Position numbers and translations under genes: made by a program. The notes beneath the pieces were generated by a model. That model was not told where the DNA came from. It did no database searches and saw nothing but the letters and a program-made list of their open reading frames with translations. From positions 212,040,001 to 212,104,000 of the forward strand of contig OZ024740.1 of the NCBI GenBank assembly GCA_964016885.1: a stretch of 64,000 nucleotides of DNA. The letters run 5' to 3'. Below, in pieces: positions 8,100 through 47,182 of this stretch (within the stretch, counting starts at the first letter, position 1; every line of letters starts with the position of its first letter). This DNA is from Eledone cirrhosa. Its lineage: Eukaryota.

Positions 8100-8912
8100 T
8101 GAAAGTGAGTTAAGTTTATATGAGCTGGAAAGCAAGTGTGATTTCATGTGTGGGCAACTGGTGAAAATTTCTGTTTTTGTATTTAGGCAGGTTTTTGGTG
8201 ATTTAAGGTTTTGTAAAATCCAATATTTTTCACTTATGCAGAGTGTACAGCTTCTTGTTCCTCTTGCATATTATTTAGATTGGTTCAAAATTGACCAATC
8301 CAATTTATATTGGATACCTTGGTCTTTCAAATCCCATATTCTGCTAGCCAGAGCTGTTTTGAATCTTTTTTCTGGATGTCGGAAAGATGCGACATGTGAG
8401 TAATAACGCGTTTTGAATTTGTTTTGTGTCATACCCACATATCGTTCGCTGGTAGCTGGTTGGTTGTTGCTGATGGTTGTCACTTTAGCCGCATATACAA
8501 TAGCTTTGGTGTTCCATTTACCTTGTAATGGGCATTCACTTTTGACTCTACAGGAGCAATTTTGATGTTCTCTGGGTGATTTCTTATTGATGATATAAGA
8601 TTTAATAGGGGGACCGCAGGAGTAGCTAATTTTGACACAGTTTCTATTGAATTTATAATAGTATCTATGTGTTCTAGGGAAATGTTTATCTAAGAGCTCT
8701 AGGAATTTTTTGCCTACATTAGTTTTAACGGCTAGAGAGTAGGGGGGGGGGGTGAATCAGATTATTTTTCTTTTCCTATTATTATGTTTAAAAGAGTTAG
8801 TATTGTTGGGTATGTACTTAATCGGTTCGCTAAATCCGGTATTTTGAAGGGCTTTATTATAGTAGGGGGATGCCTTATTGAAAATAGCTTCTGAGGAAGA
8901 GAGGGTGGAGAT
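8100..8912 (-). mobile_element. Penelope-like (Neptune-type) 3' fragment, GIY-YIG
   Basis: ISTLSSSEAIFNKASPYYNKAL...; YVGMTQNKFKTRYYSHVASFR...TALASRIWDLK. Confidence 0.85.
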
Positions 8913-11089: not shown

Positions 11090-12060
11090 TTGCCTCCCGT
11101 ACTTTAAAGTTGTTATCGGCTTTTCGCAACACTCCACCTCAGTGAACGAGAGCCGCAACAAAACGTCGAGGTAAGCACTAACGTCCATTCTGCTATCCGG
11201 CCCGCCGCTGTCCGCGAAGAGCCGAGCGAAGTGATGCTGAAAAGCCGAACACATTTTCCCGGGATCGAGTAACATGCACCCGCTGTGGACCTCCCTGTCT
11301 ATGAAGCCTATCTAAGTCGATTACACAAATCACAAATTTGTGGTCCGTGTAGTTGACTATCTTGAATTGTGGGCAACCTATGCTAGAACTATCTACTTCT
11401 TTACAAAACACCCTATCTACGTACGATCTGGATGACCCATGAGGTTTATTCATGTCCACATTGGCACATTCGGGAAATCCAGTCGGTACCTCTCAGAAAG
11501 TTGGAAACGTCTGAACAGGTTTGCGAGGTTTAAAGAGCCACTAGCCTGAAAGCATCGCCTTTGCTTCTGTTCACGTCCAGCACCACCGGCTTACCTTCTG
11601 GGTCCAGGCCTTTCCGAAACAACAGTGCTACTCCGCCTCCCGATCCCGGCCGGCTTGAAGATGCGTACACATCGTAACCGTCGAAGACTGGTGCGAAGGC
11701 TTGTGCCTCGGAAATTCTTGCTGATGGCCACCACATCTATGTTTATTGACCTGAGGTCATTGAGCAGGTGGCCCTGCTTCCATGATGATACCAGGCTACG
11801 TGCATTTACACTGCCTATTCTGAGTAAGGCAATGTTGAAAAAGAGTGGGAAAATGGGGAAAGACCACTTCCCACAGTTCTTGTGGAGGAAGGACGGTTCT
11901 TCCGTCGTTCTGACTGGTTGTGGCCCTCTCCTGAATGATGTCTTTGTACATCCCCCTGGAAAGCGTTTGCTGGAAATCTTCGATGTCATTGAGGAATTTT
12001 TCTTTTAGGGTTGTATGGGTTTTCTGTGAGATAAGTGTTATTTATATGTCTGTAGGTGAA
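11090..12060 (-). mobile_element. Degraded Tx1-like element (ORF1 end + APE endonuclease fragments)
   Basis: LRIGSVNARSL, GGGVALLFRK, SYVDRVF, YTDHKFV, AFQHHFARLF; related to 60846-64000. Confidence 0.8.
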
Positions 12061-12161: not shown

Positions 12162-15100
12162 TTTCTTTATTAGCCACAAGGGCGTAACAAGAAAAGGGGA
12201 CAATACAAAGACATGCCGGGGATTTTACATACAGTCGTGTAAAAAATATAAAAACAAACAATTTCATCAATCGAAATCCCCAATAGGGGGTAAGCGCCAA
12301 AAATGGCTTGTTTAATACCCCGTCGATCGAACAACCCTCAACTCCAGGAGCGTGTTGTGCAAGTGCTCCTTTCTTCCTTTTGCTCTCTTCCTCAACCTAC
12401 AGGCTTATAAACAGAGAAGGCCCAATCACTCGGGCCATTTTCGCTTCATTCACCCACCTTTCAGTAAATTTACTGGGGTGCAGTGCCTCTCTCTCCACCC
12501 TGATTCTCCTTCTAAAGTGATACTTAAAGAAGGGAATCAATTGTTGTCCGCAGAGAAAGGCATCTGTCCTCAGTCCTCTCAACCTCGTCTACCATATAAC
12601 TTCTTTCACCATAGCCACCGTACAGAGGAAAGCCGCCTCTCTTTCGTTTTTGAAAGAGGCTGGCGGTTTGATCCTTACTATGGACTCGGCAGTCAACTGG
12701 ATTTGTCCCATACGCGACAGCAGTTGTTCTGCATAGTTCCACAGGTCGCTTACGCCCGGGCAGTGTACAATTGCGTGCAGAACTGTTTCAATGTCCTGCG
12801 CACATCTTGGACACGTCCTCTTGGAAGGATGACTGCCAGGGCGTCCGTGCCTGTAGATCTTGTCACGAACCGGTAGAGCTCCTCGGTAGCACTGCCAGGC
12901 CAGGGACCTCTGGAAGTTGTCCATAGGTCCCGGGCGGAAAGTCCTACCAAACAGACTGGTGAGCTCATCTTCTTCGACGCCCAGAGTCTCTCCGAGCACG
13001 TCGTCGCCCTTGTAACGTACAATCCCTCTATAGAATGTCGAAGTGGAGTCTCCACTGATTGCTGCGCCCGCTTGCCAGAGGACTGTGAGCGCCTGAGCCC
13101 ATTCAATGTGCCAGGCGCCCATCGTTTTCGGTCTTTTCTTCACCCAGGACTGCAGCTCCGTTAGCGAGACGAGCTGTGGGAAAGCCTGTCTCACAAACGG
13201 TGCCCACACCGGTTGGGGGTCGGTGAGGAATACCTGGAGATGCCGCAGCCTCAGCGCATGTTTGCGCATCATCAGCCACGGCATTCCCAGCCCTCTGTTG
13301 GAAGGGTGCTGACAGCAGACGGATCTCCTCACCAGCGGAGCCTGCTTCTTCCACAGAAATTAGAAGAGCATGCGTTCCATCTTGGCGAGGTGTTCACGGG
13401 GACACGGCACGACAGTCAAGCGGTAGTAGATGACGGACGCTATGAAAGTTTTCGCCACCTCCGATCGACATTTCAAGGACAGTTTGCACTCTGCCCACTT
13501 CTGAGTGAGTGCAAACACCTTGGCCGTGACCTCGTTCCAGTTTTTCTCCAACTGGAGGTCTGGACCGAACCAGAGCCCGAGCAATTTCACCGGTCCGTCC
13601 GTCTAGCGTCCAACGACGCTGTCGGATGTAATCGGTTTGCCTCTCCACGTACCGAGTTGCAAACCGACAGACATGTCTGGGTTTAATTTTGCTCCCGTCA
13701 GCGTTTCGTATTCTTTCAGTAAGTTGCCGATCACCCCGATTTCTGAGGTGCTCGACACCATTACCGTTACGTCGTCGGCATAAGCCGACGCCGCTTTGCG
13801 CAGTCCCGGTTCTAGGGGGATGCCCTGCAACAGCTCCAATTTCCGCAGTAGTGGCTCTAGAGTCAATACATACAGAATGGAGGAGAGAGGGCATCCCTGT
13901 CGAATGGAATGCGTGATTGCGAACGGCTCCGATAGGTAGCCATTCACCTTGACCCTCGAGCAGATGCTGGTGTGCATCGCCTCGATCCATCCTCTGAACA
14001 TGGGACCGAAACTGGCCGCCTTGAGAACCGCTTCCAAGTATCGATGGTCGACCCTATCGAATGCCTTAGACTGATCCAAGTTGATCAGAGCCCCACCGAA
14101 GCCGGGTTTACTACCCACCCTCTCTATGATGTATCGCATGAAGTGGAGGTTGTCGTGTATGGATCTGGTCGGGATTGCACACGTTTGCGCTTTCCCTACC
14201 AGTTTCTCGACGACAAGCGCCAGCCTCGTCACTAGCACCTTGGCCAAAATTTTTAACTCTGTGTTGAGCCTGTGTTTAACTCTTATGGGCCTGAAGTTGT
14301 TAATTTCGTCCACCTTGTTCTCGTCTTTCCTGATCAGCGTTACTACGCCCTTGCCTGCAGAACTGGGAATTCTCCCGTTCTGCTGCCAATTGCAGTAGAC
14401 GGCTTCGAGAACGCCAGAGAACAAGTCTGGCATGCCTATGTAAAATTCGTAGGGTAGACCATCTAGACCGGGTGACTTGCGTTTCCCGCAGCGGCCCAGA
14501 GCGTCCCGTACCTAAGTGTCCGTGATCGGTCTTTCGCAGAACTCGGCTTCCGTGTTCGAGAGACGCGGCAGGCCGTCGAGGTATGAACTAAAGTCCATTG
14601 CCCCGTTCGGCTCACCGTCGTTCTGCTCAAACAGTCGCGCAAAGTGCCGCTGAAAGGCCGCGCACATTTGCTTGGGGTCAAGATGCACGCGTCCGTTTTT
14701 GTCTTTCAAAGACCGAATCGTGGTCTTGTTGCCACTTTTTGCCTCCGCCACTCGGGCCCAGCTGACAGCTTTCGCTCCTTCGTTTCCTAGAGCACGTGTT
14801 TTGCTTCTGACCACGCAGCCTTCGTGTTTCGCATCGAAGAACTGGTCCAGTGCCGTTCTCGACGCTAACACTCTAGCCGCGTTGCCACTTCTAAGTGCCT
14901 CATCTACCTTGGCTACTAGTTCTCTTTCTATTCTGTTTCCTCTCCTCCTCCTTTTAAACAGTACGGAAACACTTCCGTAGTGTTTTCCTCGCTGGAGAAA
15001 ATCGACATTTGCTAGAATTTCCTTGAAAGAATCTTCTATATCTGCTTGATTAACAAATGTCGGCTTTCTTGACGAATTTAACACAGTCCTAAAAGTGACT

Positions 15101-15760
15101 GATCGGCGGTTTGTGTTTTCCTTTATTTCAAGGGGTGAGTTAATTCTAAACCCACCTCTTTCTTCGAAAGTTACACATTTTCTCCCTTGCTGGAGCATAT
15201 CTCTTGCGTTGGAGATATCAAGATTTATAAGATCTTGTTTCTTGTTCACTGTGTCAGCGAAAGACATTTTCTTTTTTTGTGTGGTGTTGCTGTTGATGAT
15301 GTTGTTATCTTTATTGGAAATCTCAGTTCCTTGTCGAGGTGAAACTTTATGTGTAGATGTATCTGTAGAGTTGTTGATGTCTTTTTCATGTGTATGTATG
15401 TCAATGGGTTTTTTTGCTGTGTTTTCCTGTGTGTTATTGTTATTTTCTTCCGCGGTAGAAATTGTAAAATTTTCAAATGTTAATATATTTTTTTCTTTTG
15501 TGACAGTTGTATCTATGGCGACGTCCATAGTAGCAGAAGCAGATGTGTTGCTCAAGTTATTTACTTTGTAAAATCTGATATTTTAAAACAAATTTTTAAA
15601 ATAAAATGTTCGCCCCTACAGGGGCGAAAAATGGAATTACCACCCTGCTGACAATTCAGCTTGGGGGTTAATCTACAAAGTGTTGTGTTTTTTCAAACAA
15701 TTAGATCGTTTTTTTGCATAGAAATTAACAAAAAAGCTTACCGGCGATGTTCCACACGTC
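12162..15760 (-). mobile_element. Tx1-like LINE A; both ends present, internal deletion fusing ORF1 N-half to post-endonuclease ORF2
   Basis: RT motifs LDQSKAFDRV, RQGCPLS, YADD; C-terminal CPRC..ETVLH..HC; in-frame fusion near 14945; several stops and frameshifts. Confidence 0.9.
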
Positions 15761-15772
15761 AGACAGAAAGAG

Positions 15773-17256
15773 AGAGGCAGACCGATGCCTTCCGATGGCG
15801 TCGTCGGACGCTGGACGGAAGGACCGGTAAAGCTGCTCGGGGTCTGGTTTGGTCCGGACCTCCAGGTGGAGAAGAACTGGAACGAAGTGACGGCCAAGGT
15901 ATTTTCACTCACCCAGAAGTGGGCCGAGTGCAAACTATCCTTGAAAGGTCGAGCGGAGGTGGCGAACACTTTTATAGCGTCCGCCATCTACTACCGCTTG
16001 ACCGTCGTGCCTTGTCCAGCCAAAACGCTCGCCAAAATGGAGCGCGCCCTCTTACGATTCCTTTGGAAGAGGCGGGCTACTTTGGTAAGAAGATCCATCT
16101 GCTGCCAACACCCTTCTAACGGAGGGCTGGGGATGCCGTGGTTGACGATGCGCAAACACGCGCTCAGACTGCGGCATCTCTACGTATTCCTCACCGGACA
16201 ACCGGTGTGGGCCCCGTTCGTGAGGCGAGCCTTCCCACGAATCGTCTCGCTGACCGAGCTGCAGTCCTGGGTCAAGCAGAGACCGAGGAAAATGGGCGAC
16301 TGGCACATCGAATGTGCTCAGGCGCTCACAGCCCTCTGGCAGGCGGACCCGGCGATCAGTGGAGACTCCACTTCGTCATTCTATAGAGGGTTGGTCCGCA
16401 GAAAGTGCGACGACGCGCTCGGTGAAACTCTAGGCGTCGAGGAAGATGAACTGGCCAGTCTGTTCGGTAGGACCTTCCGCCCGGGACCGATGGACAACTT
16501 CCAAAAGTCCCTGGCCTGGCAGTGCTACCGAGGAGCTCTACCAGTTCGAGACAAGCTCTACAGACATGGGCGCCCGGGCAGGGACCCTACAAAAAAGATC
16601 TGTCCGAGGTGCGTGCGAGACAAAGAAACCGTTGCGCACGCATTCATACACTGCCCGGGCGTCACTGACCTGTGGGACTATGTAGAACGACTATTGTCGC
16701 CGGTGGGACCAATCCAGTTGACCACCGAGTCCATTGTCATGATCAAACCGCCACCCTCCTTCAAAAACGAAGGAGAGGCGGTTTTCCTTTGTGTGATAGC
16801 TATGGCGAAAGAGGTTGTATGGTGGACAAGGTTGAAAGGGCTGAGGTCAGACACCTTTCTCTCCGGCCAACAACTGATTCTTTTTTTCAAATACCACTTT
16901 GGAAGAAGAATCAGGATGGAGAGAGAGGTGCTGTACCCCAGCAAGTTTTATGAAAGGTGGGTGAAAGTGGCGAGAATGGCCCGAGTGAATGGGCCTTCTC
17001 TCTATATCAGCCTGTAGGTTGAGGAAAAGGAGGAGGAGAGGAAAGGAGTACAAGCTCTTCGTACTCCTGGAGATGAGGGTTGCACATTTTTTTTTCGGGG
17101 GTATGTGTTACCCATATAAACTGTCTCCCTCTATTGGGGAAAATCGACTAACTTTTAAATTCCATCTGTGATAACATTTTACACGTTTTTATTGTATGTA
17201 ACCTTCCCCCTTTGTATTTGTCCCCTTCTTTTGTGCCCCTGTGGCTAATAAAGAAA
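15773..17256 (+). mobile_element. Tx1-like LINE B, 5'-truncated (ORF2 C-terminal 410 aa + 3'UTR)
   Basis: ORF 15785..17017 paralogous to A, D and E; ends AATAAAGAAA then (TCTA)n. Confidence 0.9.
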
Positions 17257-17275
17257 TATATCTATCTATCTATCA

Positions 17276-17610
17276 GACGTGTGTAACTTCGCGGAGAAGT
17301 TTCCGTTAATTTATGTAAGAAAAAAACGTGAGTTTTTAGTTAAATTTTATATCATTGTGTAACTTGACCACCCGTCTGAACTTTCAGGTGGTGGGTCAAC
17401 TCATTTTCGCCCCTATAGGGGCGGAATATCCATTTAAAAAATTTTTCTCCATCGAATCTTGGAAAAAATATTGTAAAATTTTGATTACGTTATGAACGCT
17501 GCGTGCAACGATAATGGTGGTGGAGAGGCGGTAAGACTACAAAGCTCGCAGTCAACAACTTCTTCTTCACTAGATACTATAGAGATGGAAAGACAGAATG
17601 AAAATGTAAA
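17276..17610 (+). mobile_element. 5' end (C') of a family-C Tx1 element, inverted relative to C
   Basis: Reverse complement of ~19553-19884 with several substitutions; ORF1 start MNAACNDNGGGEAVR. Confidence 0.9.
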
Positions 17611-19884
17611 AATGGCTACCACATCCAAACTGTGCGACCTGAGGTCGTTTAAGAGTTTGCCCTGTTTCCAGGGCATCCCCAGGCCGCGTACGTTCACACA
17701 TCCAATTCTTATATTGGCCATGTTGGTGCTGAAAAGTTAAAAGAGGAAAAGAGATCACTCACCCTTCGCCTCCTGGGGACCAGGCCGCACGATTTCCATG
17801 GGGGTGTTGGAGGGGTTGTCTGGATGGGTGGTGGTTTCCGGCGGGGTGGGGACGCAGATGTTTGGTGGGGTGGGGTCTGGTGGAATGGGGGTGTCTGGGG
17901 TGGGGAGACATTTGAGAAGGACGCGGTTGAGTGGTTTCACGCAGGAATTCCCCACATCCTTCTCAAATGTTTCTTTTAGGGACCTATAAGTTTGTATAGG
18001 GACCCTAATCAGTTTTAGGTTCAGTTTTTTGCTATTTTTTATAGAGTGGGCGAAAGTTTTCCCTTCGGTGAAAACCGAAGGGTCGTTCGTGATGGTCTCC
18101 ATTAGTGTTTTGTTTTCAGTGTTTATGTAAGTGTAAGTGTAATTTTCTTGTGTTGTGTTTGTTTTTATCTGTAGTTCTTGTGTGTGCTTTCGTTTTGTTG
18201 TAGGTATTTTGTTTTCAGGAGGTGGGGGTTTGGTTTGTGATATTTTTGTTGTTTGTGTTGGTGGTTGTATGTTTGTGGTAGTGTTTGCTGGGTTTTTGCT
18301 TTTGTGATGTCTTTTCTTTCTTTTCGAGCGATGGGGTTCTCCCTCGTCTTCACTGGGTGATGGCGAGATAGCCTCATCTGTTGTATCGTCTGTGTGATTG
18401 GGGAGGGGTATGTCTTGGGGAGCTGTTGTGTCTGTATGTGATTTTGCAGTGGTTTTAGGTGGAGTGGGGTTGGGTGGGACTGTGTTTGTTGTGGTTATTT
18501 TTGTGTGTTGGTGTTGTTGTTGTGGTGGTGTTGGTGGTTGTGTTGTTTTGATGGGTGTCGGCAGAAGAGCCTTTTTTTGGTTCATTAGTTTAGGACAGGA
18601 AGCCCTCAGGTGACCCCTGCTAAAGCAATGGTAACATGAAGGCCGCCTACCCTCAACCGAAAGGTTTATGTAGGTAAGTCCGTCCAGGAGTACACGCTGT
18701 GGGATCATAGCTATTCGCTCTGGGCTCATTTGCACCAGAACTTCAATGCTAGTCCCATTGAATACATCTCTGGGGGACTTTCCTACTGACAGTATTCTGT
18801 CTTCATCAAAATTGATGAAGCCGCACAGTATCCACCATATGTTCACCTTTGGTGTGACACTTGTGATTCTGATCTTTTGTGTCCTTTTTCCCATGTATGT
18901 AGGGAAAAAGGTGTACAGGTTGGATACAATTGGCGACACAGAGTAATTTTGGGCCGTCAATTGATCCTTCATCAGTACCGAAATACTCCCAAAAAGTTTG
19001 CTTCTTTGAATGAATGCAATATCATTCATTGAATCTTTGAAAACCAGTTCAATATCTTTCTGGGACAATTGGACTGGTTTTCGGGTAGAATTGGAAACTG
19101 TCCTAAAAACTATCGTTTTGAGAGCAGTTTCCTTGCGAATTTCTACCGGAGAATTGATGCTGAAAGCACCATTTTTTTCGAAGGTGACATATCTCTTAGC
19201 GTCCTTTAAAAGGTGTTCAGCATTTGTTATGTCGAGATATATCAATTGTTCTTTCTTTTGAACTTTCTCCGCAAAGGAGATTTTTGGTTTCTTTGTGGAA
19301 TCCGTATTGGTGGTGTTGTCATTATTGTTGTTATTCTTGTTGTTATTCTTGTTGTCACCGATGTTGGTATCATCCGTATTTTCCTTGGTGTTGTTGTTGT
19401 CTTTGATGCTGGTGTTATTGGCGTTGTCTTTATTTTTTTCTTTGTTGTTGTTATCATTGTTGCTTTTATCATCATTATTGGTTTTGCTGTTATTTTTGTT
19501 GTCATTGAGCTGTTTGGTGTCATTTGTGTTGTTTGGATGTGAATTCGTTTTTTTATTTTCATTTTGTCTTTCCATCTCTATAGTATCTAGTGAAGAAGAC
19601 GTTGTTGACTGCGAGCTTTGTAGTCTTACCGCCTCTCCACCACCATTATCGTTGGACGCAGCGTTCATAACGTAATCAAAATTTTACAATATTTTTTCGA
19701 AGATTCGATGGAGAAAAATTTTTTAAATGGATATTCCGCCCCTGAAGGGGCGAAAATGAGTTGACCCACCACCTGAAGGTCCAGACGGGTGGTCAAGTTA
19801 CACAATGATATAAAATTGAACTAAAAACTCACGTTTTTTCCTTACATAAATTAACGGAAACTTCTCCGCGAAGTGACACACGAC
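17611..19884 (-). mobile_element. Tx1-like LINE C, 3'-truncated ~37 codons into ORF2
   Basis: 5'UTR, intact ORF1, ORF2 start MANIRIGCVNVRGL at 17721. Confidence 0.9.
17755..19668 (-). CDS. ORF1 (Gag-like nucleic-acid-binding protein) of element C, 637 aa, intact
   Basis: Zinc knuckle CYHCFSRGHLRASC (CX2CX4HX4C), Asn-rich N-terminus, Pro/Thr-rich C-half. Confidence 0.85.
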   Translation of the reverse strand: MNAASNDNGGGEAVRLQSSQSTTSSSLDTIEMERQNENKKTNSHPNNTNDTKQLNDNKNNSKTNNDDKSNNDNNNKEKNKDNANNTSIKDNNNTKENTDDTNIGDNKNNNKNNNNNDNTTNTDSTKKPKISFAEKVQKKEQLIYLDITNAEHLLKDAKRYVTFEKNGAFSINSPVEIRKETALKTIVFRTVSNSTRKPVQLSQKDIELVFKDSMNDIAFIQRSKLFGSISVLMKDQLTAQNYSVSPIVSNLYTFFPTYMGKRTQKIRITSVTPKVNIWWILCGFINFDEDRILSVGKSPRDVFNGTSIEVLVQMSPERIAMIPQRVLLDGLTYINLSVEGRRPSCYHCFSRGHLRASCPKLMNQKKALLPTPIKTTQPPTPPQQQHQHTKITTTNTVPPNPTPPKTTAKSHTDTTAPQDIPLPNHTDDTTDEAISPSPSEDEGEPHRSKRKKRHHKSKNPANTTTNIQPPTQTTKISQTKPPPPENKIPTTKRKHTQELQIKTNTTQENYTYTYINTENKTLMETITNDPSVFTEGKTFAHSIKNSKKLNLKLIRVPIQTYRSLKETFEKDVGNSCVKPLNRVLLKCLPTPDTPIPPDPTPPNICVPTPPETTTHPDNPSNTPMEIVRPGPQEAKGE

Positions 19885-20126
19885 TGATAGATAGATAGAT
19901 AGATAGATAGATTTCTTTATTTACCATAAAGGCATAAAAAGAAGGGACAAATACAAAGGGGGAGTTTACGTGCAATCGAGTAAAAAGGATATAAAATGAA
20001 AATAATCGAAAATAACCTCAAAAGGGAGGGGACGTGATGGGGGTTGCACACACCCCCGAAAAAGTGTGCAATCCTTTGCCCGGGGAGTACATGGAGAAGG
20101 TGCTCCCCTCTCCTTCACTTTTTTAC

Positions 20127-23100
20127 CTACAGGATGGTATACAGAGAAGGCCCATTTACACGAGCCATTCTCGCCACTATCACCCACCTTTCAGAAAACT
20201 GCCTGTGGCCAAGCACCTCTCTCTCCATTCTTATCCTTCTTCCGAAGTGATATCGGAAGAAGTAGACCAGACTATGGCCAGAGAGGAAGTTGCCTGACCT
20301 CAGACCTTTCAATCGTGTCCAGCAAACAACCTCTTTCAACATGGCTATTACGCACAGAAAAACCCCCTTTGCTTCCTTTGTGAAGAGGGGAGGCGGTTTG
20401 ATTGTCATCACGGACTCGGCGGTCAATTGAATCGGCGCCACCCGCGACAGCAGTCGTTCGGCGTAGCCCCACAGATCAGCCACGCCCGGACATTGCACCA
20501 ATGCGTGCGCAACGGTTTCTTCGTGACGCACGCATCTAGGGAAAATCTTTTTTGAGGGATCCCTGCCCGGGCGCCCGTGTCTGTAGAGCCTCTCTCGAAC
20601 GGGTAGAGCCCCCCGGTAGCACTGCCAGGCTAGTGACTTCTGGAAGTTGTCCATTGGTCCCGGGCCGAAAGTCCTACCGAACAGTCTGGCCAGTTCGTCC
20701 TCTTCCATGTCCAGCGACTCTCCAAGGGTGTCATCGCCCCTGCTAGCCAACAGCCCTCTATAGAATGATGAGGTGGATTCTCCACCGATGGCCTGGCCCC
20801 CTTGCCAGAGAGCCCTGAGCGCCTGAGCACACTCAGTGTGCCAGTCTCCCAGTTTTCCGGATCTTTGCTTGACCCAGGACTGCAGCTCGGTGAGCGAGAC
20901 GAGTCTCGGAAAGGCTCGTTTCACGAACGGAGCCCACACCGGTTGACCAGTGAGGAATACCTGTAGGTGCCGTAGCCTTAATGCGTGCCTACGCATCATC
21001 AACCACGGCATCCCCAGCCCTCCTTTCGAAGGTTGTTGGCAGCAGATGGATCTTCTCACCATAGGAGGGCGCTTCTTCCAAAGAAATTGGAAGAGCATGC
21101 GTTCCATGGTGGTGAGTGTTTCCTTAGGGCAAGGCACGACAGTCAGGCGGTAGTAAGTGACGGACGCTATGTAAATGTTCGCCACCTCCGCCCGGCCTTT
21201 TAGGGACAGCCTACACTTGGCCCATTTCTGGGTTAGTGCAAACACCTTGTTCGTAACCTCGTCCCAGTTCTTTTCCACCTGGAGGTCCGGTCCAAACCAG
21301 ACCGCAAGCAACTTTACCGGGCCCTCCGTCCAGTGTCCGACGACACCGTCGGGAGGCATCGGTCTGCCTCTCCACGTTCTGAGTTGCAACCCGATGGATT
21401 TTTCCTGGTTCAGTTTCGCTCCTGACAACCTTTCGTAATCCTCCAGTAAGGTACCGATCGCCTCGATTTCCGAGTCGGTCGATACCATTACTGTTACGTC
21501 ATCGGCGTAGGCCGACACCGCTTTGCTCAATCCTGGTTCCAGGGGGATACCCTGCAACAACTCTAACTTCCTCAGTAAAGGCTCGAGAGTCAATACGTAC
21601 AGAAGGGAGGAGAGAGGGCACCCCTGTCGAATGGATCGTGTGATTTCGAACGGCTTCGAAAGGTAGCCGTTCACCTTGATCCTAGAACAGATGTGGTTGC
21701 TATGTAAGGCAGTGATCCAGCCTCTGAAAACAGGACCGAACCCAGCCGCCGCTAGCACCGCATCCAGGTAACCATGGTCGACCCTATCGAAGGCCTTAGA
21801 CTGATCCAAGTTGATCAGGGCCCCACCGAAGCCGGGTTTGTTGCCAACCCTCTCTATGATGTATCGCATGAGGTGGAGGTTATCGTGAATGGACCTGGAT
21901 GGGATAGCACATGTCTGCGCATCTCCCACCAGGCCACCCACGACAAGCGCCAACCTCTTTGCTAACACCTTGGCCAAAATCTTTAACTCTGTGTTTAGCA
22001 GGGTTATGGGCCGAAAATTATTTATACTATCCCCTTGTTCTCGTCCTTCCTCACCAGCGAGACTACGCCCTTGGCTACAGAACAAGGAATTCTCCCGTTC
22101 TGCTGCCAATTGCAGTAGACCGCTTCGAGGAGTTCGGAGAAGAAGACCGGCATTGCTAAATAAAATTCGTAAGGTATACCATCGAGACCTGGAGATTTGC
22201 GTCTGCTGCATTGGCTCAGCGCATCTCCGATCTCATCAGCCGAGATTGGTCCCTCGCAGGACTCTGCCTCTTCGCTCGAGAGACGCGGCAGGCCGTCGAG
22301 GTATGGACCGAAATCCACGTCCCCGCCCGGACCCTCGCATCCCCCGAATAATCGGGCAAAGTGCCTTTGAAAGGCCTCGCACATCTGCTTAGGCTCCCGG
22401 ATCACCCGTCCATCCTCGTCTTGCAACGACCGGATGGTTGATCGATTTCCACTCTTAGCTTCTGTCACGCGGGCCCAGCCAACGGCTTTGGCCCCCTCAT
22501 TACCTAGAGCACGTATTTTACTTCGAATGACGCAGCCTTCGTGCTTTGCATCGAAAAACTGGTTCAAGGCCGTCCTCGATGCCAGCACTCTGGCCACATC
22601 TTCGCTCTTGATTGCCTCTTCTAATTTACCTGTTAATTCTTTCTCGTTTCTATTCCTATCGGCAGCTAACATCTTGCTATAACTTATTGATTCTGTTCTA
22701 ATCTCTCTTTTGAGAGATGCCCACCATCGGTTGTTGACGATTGCACCCGTCAACCTCTCCTTAACTAATCTGCTAATCCGGTTTCTGTAAGTCTCTTTTG
22801 CCGGTAAAGACAAATTAAGTTTCCAGTAACCGGGACCCTGTTTATGTGTTTTCTCGAGGTTGACTATGCAGGTCACTAATTTGTGATCCGTATAGCCAAC
22901 CGTGTGCATTTCTGGACAGCTTAATATGTCCCTATCCTTACTTCTAACTAAGAATCTATCTAAGTACGATCTAGATTGACCACTGTGGTTTCTCCAAGTC
23001 CAGGTAGGCACAGTTGGAAAATCTAGTCGATATCTATCGACCAAGTTAAAACGGTCGAGTAACCCCTTGAGGCTGTTACACCCCCCTCTATTAGGACATG

Positions 23101-23562
23101 CTCCTGCATAGTCCCAACGTGCATCTAGGATGTCATTCCAATCCCCCGCTAGAAGCAGGGAACGCGACGTTCCCAGAAAAGTCTCCAAACGCTGGAAGAA
23201 GTCGGGCCGTTCAGCTCCGAAAGGGGAGTAGACGGCGACCAGTCTCAAGGCCGCACCTTCACTACTGCCAACGTCTAGCACCAACAAACGACCCTCCGGG
23301 TCCGAGTGCACAACCTGTACGGCAAGACCCAGGTGTTTTTGCAGCAGTACGACAACCCCACCCCACCTCCAGGTTGACAGAGAGATGCATGCACCTCAAA
23401 GTCATCGAAGGTAGGGGCCAGCTGCCGCACGACGCTGATCCGAGTTTCACAGATAACCATTACATTTATACCACATGACCTGAGGTCATTTAGAAGCTTT
23501 GCTTGCTTCCAAGTTGAGCCCAGGCCACGTGCATTCAAACATCCTACTCTTAACACATCCAT
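20127..23562 (-). pseudogene. ORF2 of D (APE endonuclease + reverse transcriptase), frameshifted near 23300 and 22030
   Basis: VGCLNARGL, ICETR, AGDWN, SYLDRFL, TDH; QGCPLS, YADD. Confidence 0.85.
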
Positions 23563-23596
23563 GTGGGCGGCAGAGCCAAAGGAGAGTGTAGAGACC

Positions 23597-25509
23597 TTAC
23601 CTTTCTGCTTCCCGGGGTTCGGGTCGCACGACTTCCATGGGGTCGGGGGTGTTGGGTGAAGGGGTGTCTTGTGGTGGTGTGGGGTCGTCAGTGTGTGGTG
23701 GGGTTGGGGTGTTTGGAGTTGTGTTGGGGAGGGGAAGGGGAGGGGGAAAGCTTTTTAGTAGGACGCGGTTTATGGGTTTGACAGAGGGTGGTCCTACGTC
23801 CTCCTTAAAATCCTTTTTTAGTTTTTGGTAGAGGTTCATTGGGATCATTATTAATTTTAAATGTGGGTAGTTTTCTGAAGAAACAAAGTTTACACCTTCG
23901 GTTTGTACCGAAGGATTATTGTTTATGAGTTCATTTAATTTATTATTGTTTCTGTTGATGTAAGTATAGTGTAATGTCTTTTTTTCGGATGGTGTGAGTG
24001 TTTCGAAGAGGGGAGGGGCAGGTTTGGTTTTGTTTGTTGCTGGATGGGTGTTTTGTGTTTTGTTGGATTGTGTTGACATTTGGGTGGGGGTTGTTTGGCC
24101 TTGTGTGTTTTGCACATGTTTTCTTTTTTTCCTTTTAATCTGTCTGAAGGACTCCGTTTCTTCCTCCGAATTCGTTGGGTTATCTTCAGTGTTGGAGGGA
24201 AGAGGTATGTTTGCTGGTAATGTTTCCGTGTTGGTTTTCTTTGTGGGGGAGATGGATGTCACTATGTTAGACTGTGTTGTGTGTTGTGGCTGCGGTGGTT
24301 GTGTTGTTTTATTGAGTGAGGGGTTGGGTGGGCCTGTATTTTGTTTTGGGGTAATGTGTTGTGACTGTTTGTGTTGTGGTGGTGGTGTAGTTTAACTGAG
24401 GGACGGGTTGGGTGGGACTGAGTTTTGTTGTTTGTTTATCTGTTGTGGTGGTGGTGGTGGAGCTGGTGTTGGTAGCAGGGTTTTCTTTTTGTTGAGTTGG
24501 GGACAAGCGGCCTTCAGGTGCCCTCTGCCTGCACAGATATGACAGGACGGCCTTCTCTCCTCCACGCTAATGTTTATATACCCGTGGCCCTCTAATAGGA
24601 TTCTGTCGGGTATTTGGGCGATACGTTCAGGCTTCATTTGCACTACCAGCTCTATACCTGTTCCACTGAACGCATTGCCTGTGGTTTTCCCAATGGAAAT
24701 CACGTTGTCATTCACTGGATCGATGAAGCCAGCTATGAGCCAGCAGTAGTCCACATCTGGCATCATTGCATCCAGCCATATGCGTTGAGTTCTTTTACCC
24801 ATATAAGATGGATAAAAGGTAAAATTTTTCGAACGAATCGGTGACAAAGCACATTTTTTGCCGCCGATTCGTTCTTCATAATAATTGCTAGGCGTCCATA
24901 CAGTCTGTCTTTTCTTATTAAAGTGGTTTCATTAAGTACTTCTGTGAGTACTGTTTTGATATCTGTTTGAGTTGGCTGTTCAGGTTTTTTAGAAGTGTTG
25001 TTGATGGTGCGGAACACGACCGTTCGACTTTCAATGTCTTTGGTGAGTTCTTGAGGCATTTTTACCGATAAAATACCATTATCTCCTTCACTTATGTATT
25101 GTTTGGCGTCTGTGATTCTTTGTGCCACATCTGAAATATTTTCAGGTATATATGTCAAAGATTTCTTTGTTGTTTGTGCAAATGAAATCTTGTTGGTGTT
25201 GACTTTGTCGTCTGCTTTGCTTTCTGTTATGATGTTGTTTTCAAATGTTATTTTTGTGTTTGTTGTGTCTTTGTTTGTGGTATTAATATTGTCATGCAAT
25301 TCTTCAAATTTTTTTTTTCGTTGTTGGAATCCATGTCCAGATTTGTGTTTTCGTCATTTTTCTCCGCAGATTCGTCTGTTTTTATTTTATTTTTTCCTTC
25401 CTTCTCTATGACGTTAGTTGGGAAGGAAGGGGGGGGGGACTAAAGCGTGCGAGCTTACAACTCTTACCGCTGTCCCCCCACCACTATTTTCGTTCGCTTC
25501 GTTTAACAT
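23597..25509 (-). pseudogene. ORF1 of D, frameshifted
   Basis: N-terminus homologous to C ORF1; CHICAGRGHLKAAC; C-terminus PMEVVRPEPREAER*. Confidence 0.8.
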
Positions 25510-26037
25510 TTCTGTCAGACGATTGAAATTTTTTTTGCCACAAAATTTTTAAAAACAGGTTTTTCACCCCTAGGAGGGGTAAAGATGAGCTGACCAACCG
25601 CCTGACAGTTAAGACGGGGGGGGGGGGGTCAAGCTACACATAAGTATCAAAATTAAATTTGAACTTACAAAATTTCCGCAATAAATTTGAACAAAACTTC
25701 TGCGCGAAGTGAATTACTTCTACGCTGTAGAACAGACGACAGCTAGATTATATAGATAGATAGATAGATAGATATGTTTCTTTTATTTGCCACCAGGGCA
25801 TCAAAAGTGGGACAAGTACAATGGGGGGAGTTTATAAAACAAGGCGTCCTCAATAAGGAGGAGGCAATAACAAAATATAAAAATAAAATAAAATATAACA
25901 GAATAAAATTTATAACAAAATCCTCAATAGAGAGGAGGCACCTTGGGGGGTCGCACACACCCCCGAAAAAGAGTGTGCAACCCTTTTCCTCAGGAGCACA
26001 GAGAAGGGGTGCTCCCTTGGTCTTTCATCTTCCTCAC

Positions 26038-29000
26038 CTATAGTCTGATGTAGAGTGAAGGCCCATTCACACGGGCCATTCTCGCCACTTTCACCCATCT
26101 TTCATAAAAACGGCTGGGGTGCAGCACCTCTCTCTCCATCCTGATCCTTCTTCCGAAATGATATCGGAAGAAACGAACCAGTTGTTGGCCAGAGAGAAAG
26201 GTGTCTGACCTCAGTCCTTTCAGACGCGTCCATCATACAACCTCTTTCGCCATGGCTATTACGCACAGAAACACCGCCTCTTCTTCGTTTTTGAAGAGGG
26301 GAGACGGCTTGATCGTTACAATAGACTCGGTGGTCAACCGGATAGGTCCCACCCTTGACAGCAGTTGTTCGACATAGCCCCACAGATCGGCAATGCCCGA
26401 GCAGTGTACCAATGCGTGTGCAACGGTTTCCTCGTCGCACACGCATCTGGGACAGATCTTTTTCGAGGGGTCCCTACCCGGGCGCCCGTGTCTGTAGAGG
26501 CTTTCTCGAATGGGCAGAGCCCTTCTGTAGCATTGCCAGGCCAGGGACCTCTGGAAGTTATCCATGGGTCCCGGACTGAATGTCTTACCGAACAGGTTGG
26601 CCAGTTCGTCTTCCTCCATGCCTAGGGCTTCTCCGAGGGCGTCGTCGCACCTGCTAACCACCAGCCCTCTATAGAATGACGAGGTGGATTCTCCACTGAC
26701 AGCCGGGTCCGCCTGCCAGAGAGCCGTGAGAGCCTGGGCACACTCGGTGTGCCAGGCGCCCAGTTTTCTCGGTCTTTGTTTGACCCAGGATTGCAGCTCG
26801 GTGAGTGAGACGAGTCTGGGAAAGGCTCGCCTCACAAACGGGGCCCACACCGGTTGACCGGAGAGGAATACCTGAAGGTGCTGTGGCCTTAATGCGTGTT
26901 TACGTATCATTAGCCACGGCATCCCCAGCCCTCCTTTCGAAGGGTGTTGACAGCAGATGGATCTCCTCACCATAGGAGCCCGCTTCTTCCAAAGGAATTG
27001 GAAGAGTGCGCGCTCCATTTTGGCTAGCGTTTCCCTTGGGCAAGGCACAACGGTCAGGAAGTAGTAGATGACGGACACTATATAAGTGTTCACCACCTCC
27101 GCCCGACCTTTCAGGGACAGTTTGCACTCGGCCCACTTCTGGGTCAGTGCAAACACCCTGTTCGTTACCTCACCCCAGTTCTTCTCCACCTGGAGGGCTG
27201 GTCCGAACCAGACCCCGAGCAACTTCACCGGGCCCTCCGTCCAGCGCCCGACGACACCATCGGAGGGCATCGATCTGCCCCTCCACGTGCCGAGTTGCAG
27301 ACCGATCGACTTGTCCCGGTTCAGCTTAGCCCCTGTAAACCTTTCGTACTCCTCCAGTAAGGTGCCGATCGCCCCGATTTCCGAGGCCGTCGACACCATT
27401 ACTGTTACGTCATCGGCGTAGGCTGACACCGCTTTCCGCAATCCCGATTCCAACGGGATGCCCTGCAACAACTCCAACTTCTGCAGCAGTGGCTCTAGAG
27501 TCATTACATACAGAAGGGAGGAGAGAGGGCACCCCTGTCGGATGGACCGCGCGATTTCGAACGGCTCCGAGAGGTAGCCGTTCACCTTGACCCTAGAGCA
27601 GATGCGGCTGCTGTGCATGGCAGGGATCCAGCCCCTGAAAACGGGTCCGAAGCCTGCCGCCGCTAGCACCGCATCCAGGTAACCATGGTCGACCCTATCG
27701 AATGCCTTAGATTGATCCAAGTTGATCAGGGCCCCACCAAAGCCGGGTTCGTTCCCAACCCTCTCTATGATGTATCGCATGAGGTGGAGGTTGTCGTGGA
27801 TGGACCTGGACGGGATAGCACATGTATGTCTGCGTATCTCTCACCAGGTTACCCACGACAAGCGCCAACCTCTTTGCTAGCACCTTGGCCAAAATCTGTA
27901 ACTCTGTATTTAGGCAGAGTTATGGGCCTGAAATTATTTATATCGTCCCCCTTGTTCTCATCCTTCCTCACTAGCGTGACTACGCCCTTGGTCACAGCAC
28001 AGGGAATTCTCCCGTTCTGTTGCCAGTTGCAGTAGACCGCCTCGAGGAGATCGGGGAACAAGTCCGGCATAGCTAGATATAGTTCGTATGGAAGACCATC
28101 GAGAACCGGGGATTTGCGTTTGCCGCATTGGCTCAGCACGTCATCTATCTCAGCGGCTGAAATCGGCTCCTCGCAGGACTTCGCCTCCCTGTCCGAGAGA
28201 CGCGGCAGCCCGTCGAGGTATGGACCGAAGTCCACATCCCCAACCGGCTTCCCGCCCCTTCCGAACAATCCGGCAAAGTGCTTTTGAAAAGCCTCGCACA
28301 TCTGCTTAGGTTCAAGGATCACCCGTCCTTCCTGGTCTCGCAAAGACCGGATAGTGGATCTGCTCCCTCTTTTTGGCTTCTGTCACGCGGGCCCAGCTAA
28401 CAACTTTGGTCCCCTCGTTTCCCAGAGCACGTATTTTGCTTCGGACGATGCAGCCTTCGTGTTTCGCGTCGAAGAACTGGCCCAGGGCCGTTCTCGAGGC
28501 TAGCACTCTGGCCACGTCGCCGCTTCTAATTGCCTCTTCTACACTATCTACCAACTCCCTTTCCTTCCTATTTCTATTTGAGGCTAACTCCTTACTAAAT
28601 TCTATAGAGACTACTCTAATCTCTCTTTTGAGAGATCCCCACCACCTGCTGTTGACGATGGCGCCCGTCAACCGCTCCTTAACTAAAGTGCTAATCCGGT
28701 CCCTGTAAGCCTTACTTGCCGGTAAGGACAAGTTGAGCTTCCCGTAACCGGGTCCTTGTCTATGAGTTCTGTCAAGGTTGACCATGCAGGTCACTAACTT
28801 GTGGTCTGAATAGCCAACCATGCGCATTTTTGGACAACTTAAAAAGTCATTATCCTTAATTCTAAATAAGAACCTATCTAGGTACGACCTAGATGATCCG
28901 CTACGATTTGCCCAAGTCCAGGTTGACGCAGTCGGAAAATCTAGTCGATATCTATCGGCCAGGTCAAATCGACCGATTAACCCTTTGAGGCTATTACACC

Positions 29001-29481
29001 CCTCTCTATCGGGACAGGCCCCTACGTAGTCCCAGCGTGCATCTAGGATACCATTCCAGTCCCCCACTAATAGCAAGGAGCGGGACGTCCCTAGAAAAGT
29101 CTCCAGACGATGGAAGAAGTCCGGCCGCATTGACCCGAAAGGGCCGTAGGCGGCTACCAACCTAAACGCTCCGCCTTTACCACTGCCAAGGTCCAGAACC
29201 ACTAGTCGACCCTCCGGGTCCAAATGTACCATCTGTGTTGCGAGACCCAGATGTTTTTGCAGCAGAACGACAACCCCACCCCCACCTCCGGGCTGACAGA
29301 GAGATGCGTGCATCTCAAAGTCATCAAAGGTGGGGGCCAGCTGTCGCACGTTGCTGATCCGGGCCTCGCAAATAACCATCACATCTATACGTTGTGACCT
29401 GAGGTCATTTAGAAGCATTGCTTGCTTCCAAGTTGAGCCCAGGCCACGCGCATTTAAACAGCCTACTCTTAGCATGGCCAT
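26038..29481 (-). pseudogene. ORF2 of E (APE + RT), frameshifted with an internal stop
   Basis: ORF pieces 28312..29505, 27849..28343, 26233..27780; ends GPSLYIRL*. Confidence 0.85.
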
Positions 29482-29505
29482 GTTGGTGGTGAAGAGAAAA
29501 GGCAC

Positions 29506-31101
29506 TTACCCCTCTGCGTCCCGGGTATCGGGCTGCACAATTTCCATTAGGGTGGGGTATGGGTTGTTGGGTGGGGTGGTGATTTGTGGAGGTGTAGGGG
29601 CATCAGTGTGTTGTGTGGTTGGGGAGTTTGGAGTTGTGAGGGTGTTTGGGGAGGGGTGGGGTAGTTTTCTAGGAGGACGCGGTTAATGGGCCCGACGCAG
29701 GGGGGGACCCACGTCCTCTTTAAAGTTGTTTTTTAAAGTTTTATAGTTGTCCTGTGGGGCCTTAATCATTTTGAGGTGGGGGAAATCCCCTGCCTGGGTG
29801 AAGTTAGGCCCTTGGGTTTTTATTAGATTGTTGTTGTACACAATGTTTAACAGTTTTTTGTTTCTTGTGTTTATGTATGTGTATGCATGTTTTTGTTTTT
29901 GTGTGGTGTTTTTTGTTTGCTGTTGTTGTGAGCTCTTTTGTGTTGGTGTCAGTGTTATGTTTTGGGGAGGGGTTGTTTTCATTTGTGTGTCTGAGGTGTG
30001 TTTTCTTTTTTTTTCTTTTGATTGTGTGGAAGTGCTCCTCTCGTCTGACGAAGAAACTAGGGTCATCTTCCGCGTTGGAAGGGAGGGGTATATTTTCGGG
30101 TTGTGTTTGCGGTGCGGGTGTTTTGGAAATTATTATTTTTTTTTTAGTGGGGGGGGATGGGTTGGACATTGTTTTGTTTTGGTTTGAGCTGTGGTGGTTG
30201 TTTTTGTAGTGGTAGTTGTGGTGATTGTGTTGGTTTTGCAGTTGTTGGTGGTGTAGGCAGGATTGGGGTTTTCTTATTAAGTTGGGGACAGACAGCCCTC
30301 AGGTGACCTCTGGTTCCGCAGAGGTAACACGAGGGCCGCCTACCCTCAACGGTAATGTTGATGAAAGTTTGATCATCCAGTATGACGCGTTCAGGGATCT
30401 GGGCGATCCTTTCGGGCCTCATTTGAACTACAAGTTCGAGGGTCGTTCCACTGAACGCGTCACCCGATGCCTTTCCCATGGACACCAGCGTGTCATCATC
30501 CAGGTCCAGGAAACCTGTCAAAACCCACCATATGTCCATAATCGGCAGGATGGTGTGGATTTTTATTTTTTGTCTTCTTCTACCCATGTACGTAGGGTAG
30601 AAGGTGTATGCGGTGGATGCGATTGGTTTGATGGACAGTTTCACTGCTGTGTCCCTGTCCTTCATGAGAATGGATAGACTCCCGTAGAGTCTATCCTTCT
30701 GAATGAAGGTGATGTCCTTCATGACGTCTTTTAAAACCAGCTCTATCTCACTCTGTGATGGTTGAGCTGGATTTTTGCTTTTATTCGAGATTGTCCTAAA
30801 CATGACAGTGTTTAGGAGTCTCTGGCTTTTTAGTTCGGGGGGGGGGGGGATGGACCGTGAATGAACCATTTTCCCCGTACACTATATATTTTTTGGCATC
30901 TGCCAGTAGCTCCTTCGCTTTGGTTATATCTACTGGCAGATAGTCGAGGGTTTTCCTTGCCGTCTCGGCGATGGAGAAATTTTTGTTTGTTTGTGTTGCT
31001 GTTGTAGTTGGTGTTGCTGTTGTAGTGACAGTGGCAGGGGGAAGCTGTAAGCTTATCTTCCCCTTTCCTCCTTCGAATTTTGGTGAAGATGCTTCAGCCA
31101 T
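29506..31101 (-). pseudogene. ORF1 of E, frameshifted (one shift in a G-run at ~30840)
   Basis: CYLCGTRGHLRAVC knuckle; C-terminus LMEIVQPDTRDAEG*. Confidence 0.8.
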
Positions 31102-31903
31102 TTTTATCAAAATAGGATTTTTCGAAATTTTTCGAAAGATTAAATTTTTACAACACTATTTCGCCTAAAGGCGTAGAATATTTTGAGAGACTGACCAGAT
31201 CAAAGTTTGACCTGGCAGTCTCTCTACAAAATGGTACAAAAATGAAAGTTTACAGTTCACAATTTAAAGATAAATTTAAACGAAACTTACCGAGCGAGCT
31301 CAGCACATGTGTCTATCCCAGAGAAAGAAGATAGATAGATAGATAGATAAAAGAAAAACAGAGATGATGCGTGTGTTTGTAGCTGTCGGTCGAATATATA
31401 TTACATGTAAACCAATAAGGCTTTTAAAAAAATATTACTCAATTGAGTAATATTTTTTTAAAAGCCTTTTGATGTTCTATTGAGAGAATCGATTTTACTC
31501 AATATATCGAATAATGTACACCATTTTACCAGGGGGAAAAATACTGGTCCCCCCACACACACATTCTCTCACACACACACACACATATATACACACACAC
31601 ACATACACACGCGTACATTAACATACAAAGAGACTTATACACACACACACACACACACACACACTTCTCCGTATAAGACAAAAGCTGAAAAATATCTTTT
31701 GACATGCTAAAATACCCCCCCACTCCTTACAGACACATTCCTACTGACCATCCCGCTACCACGAATTACTCTGCTACACACACACACACACACACACACA
31801 CACTTATCTTAATAGCCATTTGAACTGTCAACAGGTTGCTGTCCGCACACACATCCCTGCTAACCATTATCACAACATCGAACACTACTACTACACACAC
31901 ACA

Positions 31904-45471: not shown

Positions 45472-47182
45472 TGCCCTCTCTCCTCCCTTCTGTACGTATT
45501 GACTCTCGAGCCTTTACTGAGGAAGTTGGAGTTGTTGCAGGGTATCCCCCTGGAACCAGGATTGAGCAAAGCTGTGTCGGCCTACGCCGATGACGTAACA
45601 GTAATGGTATCGACCGACTCGGAGATCGAGGCGATCGGTACCTTACTGGAGGATTACGAAAGGTTGTCAGGAGCGAAACTGAATCGGGAAAAATCCATCG
45701 GGTTGCAACTCGGAACGTGGAGAGGCAAACCGATGCCTCCCGACGGTGTCGTCGGACACTGGACGGAGGGCCCGGTAAAGTTGCTTGGGGTCTGGTTTGG
45801 ACCGGACCTCCAGGTGGAAAAGAACTGGGACGAGGTTACGAACAAGGTGTTTGCACTAACCCAGAAATGGGCCAAGTGTAGGCTGTCCCTAAAAGGCCGG
45901 GCGGAGGTGGCGAACATTTACATAGCGTCCGTCACTTACTACCGCCTGACTGTCGTGCCTTGCCCTAAGGAAACACTCACCACCATGGAACGCATGCTCT
46001 TCCAATTTCTTTGGAAGAAACGCCCTCCTATGGTGAGAAGATCCATCTGCTGCCAACAACCTTCGAAAGGAGGGCTGGGGATGCCGTGGTTGATGATGCG
46101 TAGGCACGCATTAAGGCTACGGCACCTACAGGTATTCCTCACTGGTCAACCGGTGTGGGCTCCGTTCGTGAAACGAGCCTTTCCGAGACTCGTCTCGCTC
46201 ACCGAGCTGCAGTCCTTGGTCAAGCAAAGATCCGGAAAACTGGGAGACTGGCACACTGAGTGTGCCCAGGCGCTCAGGGCTCTCTGGCAAGCGAGCCCGG
46301 CCATCGGTGGAGAATCCACCTCATCATTTTATAGAGGGCTGGTGGCTAGCAGGGGCGAAGACACCCTTGGAGAGTCGCTGGACATGGAAGAGGACGAACT
46401 GGCCAGCCTGTTCGGTAGGACTTTCGGCCCGGGACCAATGGACAACTTCCAGAAGTCACTAGCCTGGCAGTGCTACCGGGGGGCTCTACCCGTTCGAGAG
46501 AGGCTCTACAGACACGGGCGCCCGGGCAGGGATCCCTCGAAAAAGATTTGCCCTAGATGCGTGCGTCACGAAGAAACCGTTGCGCACGCATTGGTGCAAT
46601 GTCCGGGCGTGGCTGATCTGTGGGGCTACGCCAAACGACTGCTGTCGCGGGTGGCGCCGATTCGATTGACCGCCGAGTCCGTGGTGACAATCAAGCCGCC
46701 TCCCCTCTTCACAAAGGAAGCAAAGGCGGTTTTTCTGTGCGTAATAGCCATGTTGAAAGAGGTTGTTTGGTGGACACGATTGAAAGGTCTGAGGTCAGGC
46801 AACTTCCTCTCTGGCCATAGTCTGGTCTACTTCTTCCGATATCACTTCGGAAGAAGGATAAGAATGGAGAGAGAGGTGCTTGGCCACAGGCAGTTTTATG
46901 AAAGGTGGGTGATAGTGGCGAGAATGGCTCGTGTAAATGGGCTTTCTCTGTATACCATCCTGTAGGTAAAGAAGTGAAGGAGAGGGGAGCACCTTCTCCA
47001 TGTGCTCCCCGGGCAAAGGATTGCACACTTTTTCGGGGGTGTGTGCAACCCCCATCACGTCCCCTCCCTTTTGAGGTTGTTTTCGATTATTTTCATTTTA
47101 TACCCTTTTTACTCGGTGTTATGTAAACTCCCCCTTTGTATTTGTCCCTTCTTTTTATGCCTTTATGGTAAATAAAGAAATA
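45472..47182 (+). mobile_element. 5'-truncated family-D Tx1 copy with 15-bp target-site duplication
   Basis: ORF 45499..46965 nearly identical to D ORF2; TSD TATATGTAGTATTGC at 45460-45474 and 47183-47197. Confidence 0.93.

Follow-up and report, generated by a model that had tools for sequence, protein, structure and literature searches.

The nearest known system to the long interspersed nuclear elements (LINEs) discussed here, which form a tandem array at 12.1-31.3 kb of a 64,000-nucleotide stretch of the Eledone cirrhosa genome (assembly GCA_964016885.1, contig OZ024740.1, positions 212,040,001 to 212,104,000; hereafter the window) and are parted by (ATCT)n runs, is the short GAG RNA of the Arabidopsis Ty1/copia element EVD (PMC5580714). 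In the available parts of that report, as of the others cited here, a conserved U1 site is placed at the end of the structural gene of EVD and is better kept than the acceptor, splicing creates a stop codon and U1 also protects the full-length RNA. EVD is, however, a long terminal repeat element with a short intron, early poly(A) and proof at the RNA level, whereas in the octopus LINEs the proposed intron comprises all of the second open reading frame (ORF2) and a co-varying long-range helix is predicted over the site, a feature that goes unmentioned for EVD in those parts (PMC5580714). Human L1 and its spliced integrated retrotransposed elements (SpIREs) provide the example of a LINE with functional splice sites, an inter-ORF spacer and a polypurine motif in the 3' untranslated region (UTR), but the SpIRE splice sites are located in the 5'UTR and in ORF1, and human L1 leaves spliced genomic copies, whereas none was found for the octopus families C, D and E (PMC5860796). 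In the termination-reinitiation described for SART1 and L1, ORF2 is likewise translated after ORF1 with an RNA structure near the junction, and RNA looping has been discussed for L1; the SART1 structure is, however, local and downstream of an overlapping stop-start, whereas the octopus partner strand is 3.4 kb off (PMC5972666). An engineered foldback that pairs sequence close to the poly(A) signal with the bases immediately after a stop codon suppresses nonsense-mediated decay (NMD) in human cells, but this is an artificial 26-nt insert in human reporters, whereas the octopus helix is natural, 45-53 bp long and predicted (PMC2689704). Finally, the half-L1 elements known as HAL1 are ORF1-only derivatives such as a spliced RNA would yield, although no such copy was found for octopus C, D and E (PMC5753468). 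No title or abstract opening in the literature surveyed describes the design of the octopus elements, most subscription papers, Repbase reports and supplements lying outside that survey.

The initial annotation of the window had read ORF2 of two of its elements, D and E, as a single intron with its donor on the ORF1 stop and its acceptor on the ORF2 stop. The letters and positions behind this reading were all confirmed: on the minus strand, D has the donor at 23600 and the acceptor at 20127 (interval 3474 nt), and E has them at 29509 and 26038 (3472 nt). The robust result of our comparison across the genome is a lineage-specific donor-plus-helix device around ORF2, the function of which we assign with about even confidence. 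What is new, as read from the sequences, is a family-specific complementarity between the inter-ORF spacer and the 3'UTR.

Spacer-3'UTR complementarity

The 96 elements with both ORF2 ends that were gathered from the genome, duplicates included, fall into eight ORF2 clusters, namely R, D, P (with a subfamily, P2), C, E, A, S and G, with S and G being single copies and intact ORFs occurring in families C, P and R. The 3'UTR opens with ~45 nt that match, in reverse complement, the ORF1-ORF2 spacer of the same family, with duplex energies of -24 to -46 kcal/mol. Shuffled UTRs reached the own-family energy in none of 1000 cases for G, P, A and C, in 1 for P2, 26 for R, 28 for S, 31 for E and 115 for D. 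A scan of the entire element gives no better partner than the UTR start in R, G, P, P2, A and C, but does so in S, E and D. Since any pyrimidine strand pairs with any purine strand, specificity was tested by permuting families after removal of row and column effects, with P2 either merged with P or dropped for it. When several copies per family were used, with the recombinant L214 and copies lacking a readable donor or stop set aside and the shuffles in D covering the first 8 of 16 pairs, 2 of 40,320 permutations did as well as own-family pairing; with one copy per family, 4 of 40,320 did. Among 24 control windows the best was matched by 225 of 40,320 permutations and the others by at least 1960, and two other 5' pieces gave nothing notable. 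A freely decaying old inverted repeat would not favour its own family, which argues for compensatory change or recurrent strand-to-strand copying. These comparisons show, at the level of sequence, that the inter-ORF spacer and the start of the 3'UTR co-evolved as complementary strands, and the predicted helix is likely to be a structure under selection.

The complementarity reaches into the first and last ORF2 codons, to 45-53 pairs in total (1 of 40,320 permutations), and the predicted, imperfect helix loops out ORF2 in such a way that the ORF2 AUG lies opposite the ORF2 stop, both splice-like sites being included. The donor stands within the helix at a constant register across families, and all six of its intron-side bases are predicted to be covered in A, G, P and P2, and part of them in R, C, S, E and D. 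Base-pairing also accounts for the purine-rich sequence downstream of the proposed acceptor, which had been taken for an exonic splicing enhancer: the sequence is there, but it is complementary to the inter-ORF spacer, and the G that follows TAG lies opposite the bases preceding the AUG. The helix likewise accounts for some of the pyrimidine tract and for the AGs that the spacers contain in C, in R and in some copies of A.

In the window, all on the minus strand, the 5' strand of the E helix (29459..29512) contains the donor, the pyrimidine spacer, the ORF2 AUG (29481) and the first codons, and its 3' strand (26005..26064) the last ORF2 codons, the TAG and the start of the purine-rich 3'UTR, with 40 predicted pairs at -40.8 kcal/mol; the D helix joins 23536..23602, with the ORF2 AUG at 23562, to the predicted strand 20092..20159 (50 predicted pairs, -51.3 kcal/mol). 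No Rfam family matched positions 11000-32000 at gathering score, a helix of 3.4-kb range being outside what Rfam models. Of 80 distant metagenome loci of the L1 type, 58 without both ORFs were excluded, and spacer-UTR pairing was found in one of the remaining 22; for L125, a distant metagenome LINE, the pairing beats 200 of 200 shuffles. In the 3'UTRs of C, E and A the donor-pairing strand doubles as 5' arm in a local hairpin, two folds thus competing.

A conserved donor and a proposed acceptor at the two ORF stops

Splice sites were scored with approximate splice-site tables and ranked among all GTs (or AGs) of each of nine representatives, the eight families and P2. The donor is the best of 271-316 GTs in R, D, P, C, E, A and G, tied for first in P2 and third in S. 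Its positions -1, +1, +2, +5 and +6 are identical in 9/9 representatives, +3 and +4 are always purines, and agreement drops to 3-7 of nine at most neighbouring positions, conservation ending sharply at -1 and +6; the motif fits the consensus 5' splice site of U2-type introns. All three stop codons are found within it across copies, and in C and R it is shifted to phase 1, eight R-related loci retaining it. Therefore, the stop codon does not explain the conservation of the donor. Among the 22 distant L1-type elements a donor ranks in the top 3 at the ORF1 stop in one. The donor is a conserved signal of this lineage, far above chance.

The two window copies are not typical of their families. The D motif (23595..23603, minus strand) carries a one-base insertion, so that the end GAA AG/GTAAGG with a restored TAA, as first annotated, is right in its letters but not as a family state: the family hexamer is GTAGGT, with the native ORF1 stop TAG, in 9/9 other copies, and among fetched D copies GTAGGT occurs in 19/20 and GTAGGC in the remaining one, with 250 exact genomic matches. 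In E (29504..29512, minus strand, the ORF1 stop TAA being intron positions +2..+4), the ending ...DAEG reported for ORF1 does not represent the family, which reads ...DAER with the donor GAG/GTAAGT in 5 of the 6 fetched full-length copies whose junction was read. A second donor-like motif lies 30-45 nt from the 5' end of E (31286-31294 of the window) and of an A copy (L089), and is absent from that place in C and D. Another, AAG/GTGGGT, precedes the ORF2 stop by ~60 nt in D, C, A, S and G and derives from conserved E-R-W-V codons, so coding alone can preserve a splice-like motif.

The acceptor at the ORF2 stop, in contrast to the donor, is not above chance. Among ~250 AGs per representative it ranks 7 in R, 11 in D (of 254), 21 in C, 27 in A, 49 in S, 62 in E (of 260) and 67 in G, and the intact families P and P2 end ORF2 in TAA, so they have no AG acceptor at the stop. 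In D the region was found in 16/20 fetched copies, with TAG/G in all. Two cautions of the initial annotation were borne out: an AG 7 nt upstream outscores the stop AG in C, E, S and A, and no clear branch point can be seen by eye. Scored across families, as that annotation had proposed, the bracketing of ORF2 by splice sites is thus upheld on the donor side (rank 1 in 7/9) and not on the acceptor side.

Splicing had also been expected to restore the ORF1 stop in phase. Joining the donor to the TAG gives a stop after 0 codons in D, E and C, 1 in R, 3 in S, 27 in A and 35 in G; restoration within three codons thus holds in 5 of the 7 TAG-ending families, with donors in phase 1 (C, R) and phase 2 (D, E, S), and fails in A and G; P/P2 have no acceptor there. 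Counted by lineage, R, C and S/D/E match and A and G do not, which is 3/5 at ~1 in 3 each and not significant (p ~0.2), and an early stop in some frame is almost automatic because the strand is purine-rich. A and G can be rescued, post hoc, through the AG 7 nt upstream, ending on ORF2's own stop, but in C, where that AG has the highest score, its use would append 34 codons. Two other routes across the ORF1-ORF2 boundary were tried and rejected: a very short mini-intron (42-55 nt) whose removal would fuse the two ORFs, in frame in D, E, A and P and out of frame in C and R, and stop readthrough, for which the ORFs share a frame in C, D and E but not in A or P, with a second stop in C.

Spliced copies were sought genome-wide for C, D and E by exact patterns. 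For D there were none against the 250 exact unspliced matches, and the matches of one donor-side and two acceptor-side variants were all unspliced; variant matches were spliced in 0/3 cases for C and 0/7 for E, the totals of these two families being uncounted. Among 176 collected loci, picked by other searches and overlapping, 154 ORF1 ends and 162 UTR starts include no pair less than 2500 nt apart. A spliced RNA would record its junction after only ~250 nt of reverse transcription; cis preference could be a reason for the lack of such copies, although human L1 does produce them (PMC5860796). The proposed seeding of ORF1-only copies is therefore unsupported in C, D and E. In four contig sets of undefined kind over 15700-31400, none of the 15 joints listed, out of these and 143 more, falls at the D or E sites, and an X4 and an X5 contig run through the D acceptor unspliced, which is no evidence either way on splicing.

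The intron interpretation as a whole is partly supported by these sequences and, in our view, rather doubtful. Its best form is that the donor is spliced to the ORF2-stop AG, or to the AG 7 nt upstream, in some transcripts, which would yield an ORF1-only mRNA with the helix serving as a bridge or switch to control the ratio; we hold this to be possible, if unlikely, and within it R, C, S, E and D may be the families that splice, and A, G and P those that do not. It is in the former five, two phase-1 donors among them, that the stop follows within three codons, and in the same five that donor positions +2 to +4 are partly or wholly unpaired, whereas they are fully paired in A, G, P and P2; this match, however, comes down to two sister contrasts and was spotted afterwards. 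The ending of A and G on ORF2's own stop through the upstream AG would also fit, as would the precedent of Arabidopsis copia elements, which in the available text likewise conserve the 5' site and make stops by splicing (PMC5580714). Against it stand the low acceptor ranks and the missing acceptor of P/P2, the 34 codons that the better-scoring AG adds in C, the want of a clear branch point by eye and of any spliced retrocopy, and a phase matching that is not significant across lineages.

The helix as a proposed RNA clasp

A helix spanning 3.4 kb and covering a conserved donor suggests, on the folding models, a built-in RNA control device. The explanation that we favour, with no more than an even chance of its being right, is an RNA clasp by which the bicistronic RNA would stay intact and open to translation. 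U1 would bind the donor during transcription; once the 3'UTR emerges, the helix would cover donor and acceptor, and the unspliced bicistronic RNA would be the default product. The helix would also bring the ORF1 stop from 3.6-3.7 kb to within ~0.2 kb of the poly(A) signal, a natural foldback by which termination at ORF1 would appear normal to NMD. With the ORF2 AUG set beside the ORF2 stop, re-entry of ribosomes into ORF2 could be aided, and a helix that forms on complete RNAs only would mark them for retrotransposition as well. The acceptor-like look of the ORF2 stop and the early stop that follows it would then be largely by-products of the pairing. We count in favour of the clasp that P and P2 have donor and helix with no acceptor at the stop, that the donor combines its rank with a sharp conservation window, and that no spliced copies were found for C, D and E.

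Several observations weigh against this explanation. The pairing is weakest in D and E, the two families in which the arrangement was first noticed; only 3 of 8 spacers pair best with the UTR of their own family; and the coding part of the helix is weak by itself (373 of 40,320 permutations; 9-408 of 1000 synonymous recodings). All helix structure is predicted: two-strand folds with flanks and the whole 3'UTR keep 23-36 spacer bases paired to the UTR start in 9/9, though with no dimer-energy control, and 3.8-kb folds, unreliable either way and run with G and P2 left out, contain the helix in P, A and C and partially in the window E but lack it in 5/9 (E copy L074, both D copies, R and S). The nine ORF2s contain no AATAAA against ~6 expected, so there is no obvious target for a U1 block of downstream poly(A) sites (telescripting), and the roles of the helix in NMD, reinitiation and packaging are putative.

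It is tempting to speculate on a variant, tentative and somewhat less probable than plain splicing, in which the co-evolving helix acts as an RNA switch deciding between a full-length, NMD-protected and retrotransposition-competent RNA and an ORF1-only mRNA devoid of ORF2, at a ratio tuned by donor coverage; the ORF1-only mRNA of such a switch would lack the helix and so, on this doubtful scheme, would not be copied back. Improbable in our judgement is that donor and helix act apart, the donor serving U1-dependent transcription or outside acceptors (those of the next element of the tandem array or of host exons) and the helix ORF2p recognition or translation only. The donor is indeed kept where the acceptor is lost, the elements lie in tandem arrays, pieces of their proteins occur inside octopus gene models, and a poly(A) hexamer lies within 350 nt upstream of the donor in 8/9 representatives; but such hexamers are expected anyway since ORF1 is A-rich, family C has none within 1.6 kb, and the donor sits inside the helix at a constant register. 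Very improbable, finally, is a mere mimic without U1 binding, a G, a stop codon and GT held by the stop codon and the pairing, for although +2..+4 are the stop itself in phase-2 families and -1, +1, +5 and +6 pair with the UTR strand, the motif is kept in C and R where +2..+4 are not the stop, and conservation halts at the motif's edges with the rest of the helix free to vary.

The array, its relatives and the biology of octopus LINEs

Element E (25774..31328, minus strand) is a full-length, frameshifted LINE of L1/Tx1 type flanked by (ATCT)n runs; its ORF2 (26038..29481), with endonuclease, reverse transcriptase (RT) and zf-RVT domains, is frameshift-broken and ends in the TAG (26040-26038) of the proposed acceptor, and its poly(A) signal (25782-25787) comes right before the (ATCT)n tail. 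Element D (19913..25753, minus strand) is likewise full-length, frameshifted and flanked by (ATCT)n, with a broken ORF2 (20127..23562), the TAG of the proposed acceptor at 20129-20127 and a poly(A) signal (19916..19921) right before its tail. The element C donor, in phase 1, lies at 17757..17765 on the minus strand within the last codons of an open 638-aa ORF1 (19668-17755). This element (15772-19880, minus strand) breaks off after ~100 nt of ORF2, next to its own 5' end in inverted copy; before the latter comes element B, the 3' part of a C-family copy on the plus strand, the whole being a fold-back rearrangement; the ORF2 TAG stop and 3'UTR strand of B (17015..17062, plus strand) are complementary to the C spacer. 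Element A, from the family with the strongest spacer pairing, has its ORF2 stop and 3'UTR strand at 12355..12399 (minus strand), and at 14512-15582 an internal deletion links the initial part of ORF1, in frame, with a middle part of ORF2, giving an open frame of 356 aa. Near-identical copies of the array on the opposite strand, at 211.9, 212.4 and 212.95 Mb of the same contig (G000:C1), are due either to a local segmental duplication or to the assembly. The window also has partial copies of families D and G, and of older families of the same lineage, at 45472-47185, 58650-59250, 61530-64000 and 11100-11900, and two minus-strand open frames (8271-8756 and 52696-53307), alike by eye and with no Pfam match, are probably another repeat.

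The ORF2 tree is ((R,(G,(P,P2))),(A,(C,(S,(D,E))))), with all six inner branches well supported, and the C ORF1 shares 27-49% identity with its counterparts in D, R, P and A. L214 is a natural strand swap, a recombinant of a P-family ORF1 with an intact ORF2 clustering with R and an R 3' end. The Pfam domains Exo_endo_phos, RVT_1 and zf-RVT, answering to the AP-type endonuclease, RT and C-terminal cysteine domain that mark the group, place ORF2 in the L1/Tx1 group of non-LTR retrotransposons, and its closest solved structure is human L1 ORF2p (E 1e-51). A CCHC zinc knuckle in ORF1 is a feature of the Tx1 clade; C-x2-C-x4-H-x4-C is invariant in 5/5 ORF1s, with weak Pfam zf-CCHC matches (E 0.24-0.71) in 2/5 only. 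Tx1 elements have a target preference, often for microsatellites (PMC4494074). Here (ATCT)n runs lie near 17/20 D copies as well as between the window elements, and R, P and P2 elements terminate in (ATT)n; the putative membership of Tx1 fits this preference, and the homology searches returned no named Tx1 reference. An Argonauta hians ORF2 is a homologue at 61%, and ORF1 pieces were matched in Octopus sinensis and O. bimaculoides; a profile search found octopod ORF1s where a word search for homologs found none, and the closer non-octopod ORF2 relatives, at 36-43%, were not among the hits of the metagenome scan. The ORF1s of P0077 and of an Argonauta element end in GK and GKS, which at the protein level would be compatible with a phase-1 donor; P0077 is a 2209-nt contig of about the size of an ORF1-only RNA, with a complete 603-aa ORF1 ending ...QGK. 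P0030, P0158, P0129 and P0135 are host-like protein models with LINE pieces, by exonisation or annotation error, one such model, an O. bimaculoides ARHGEF10-like protein, beginning with an ORF2 piece. Thirteen recently active L1-Tx1 families have been described in Octopus vulgaris, in a paper whose available text matches neither 'splic' nor 'ORF1' (PMC13282606).

LINEs pose the open questions of how a bicistronic RNA yields plenty of ORF1p but little ORF2p, how their RNAs escape decay despite the kilobases past the first stop, and how only complete RNAs are copied. In the young intact families C, P and R, a single short element that bears compensatory changes of natural origin makes these questions testable, and the donor, present thousands of times over, could also have an effect on the transcripts of the octopus itself.

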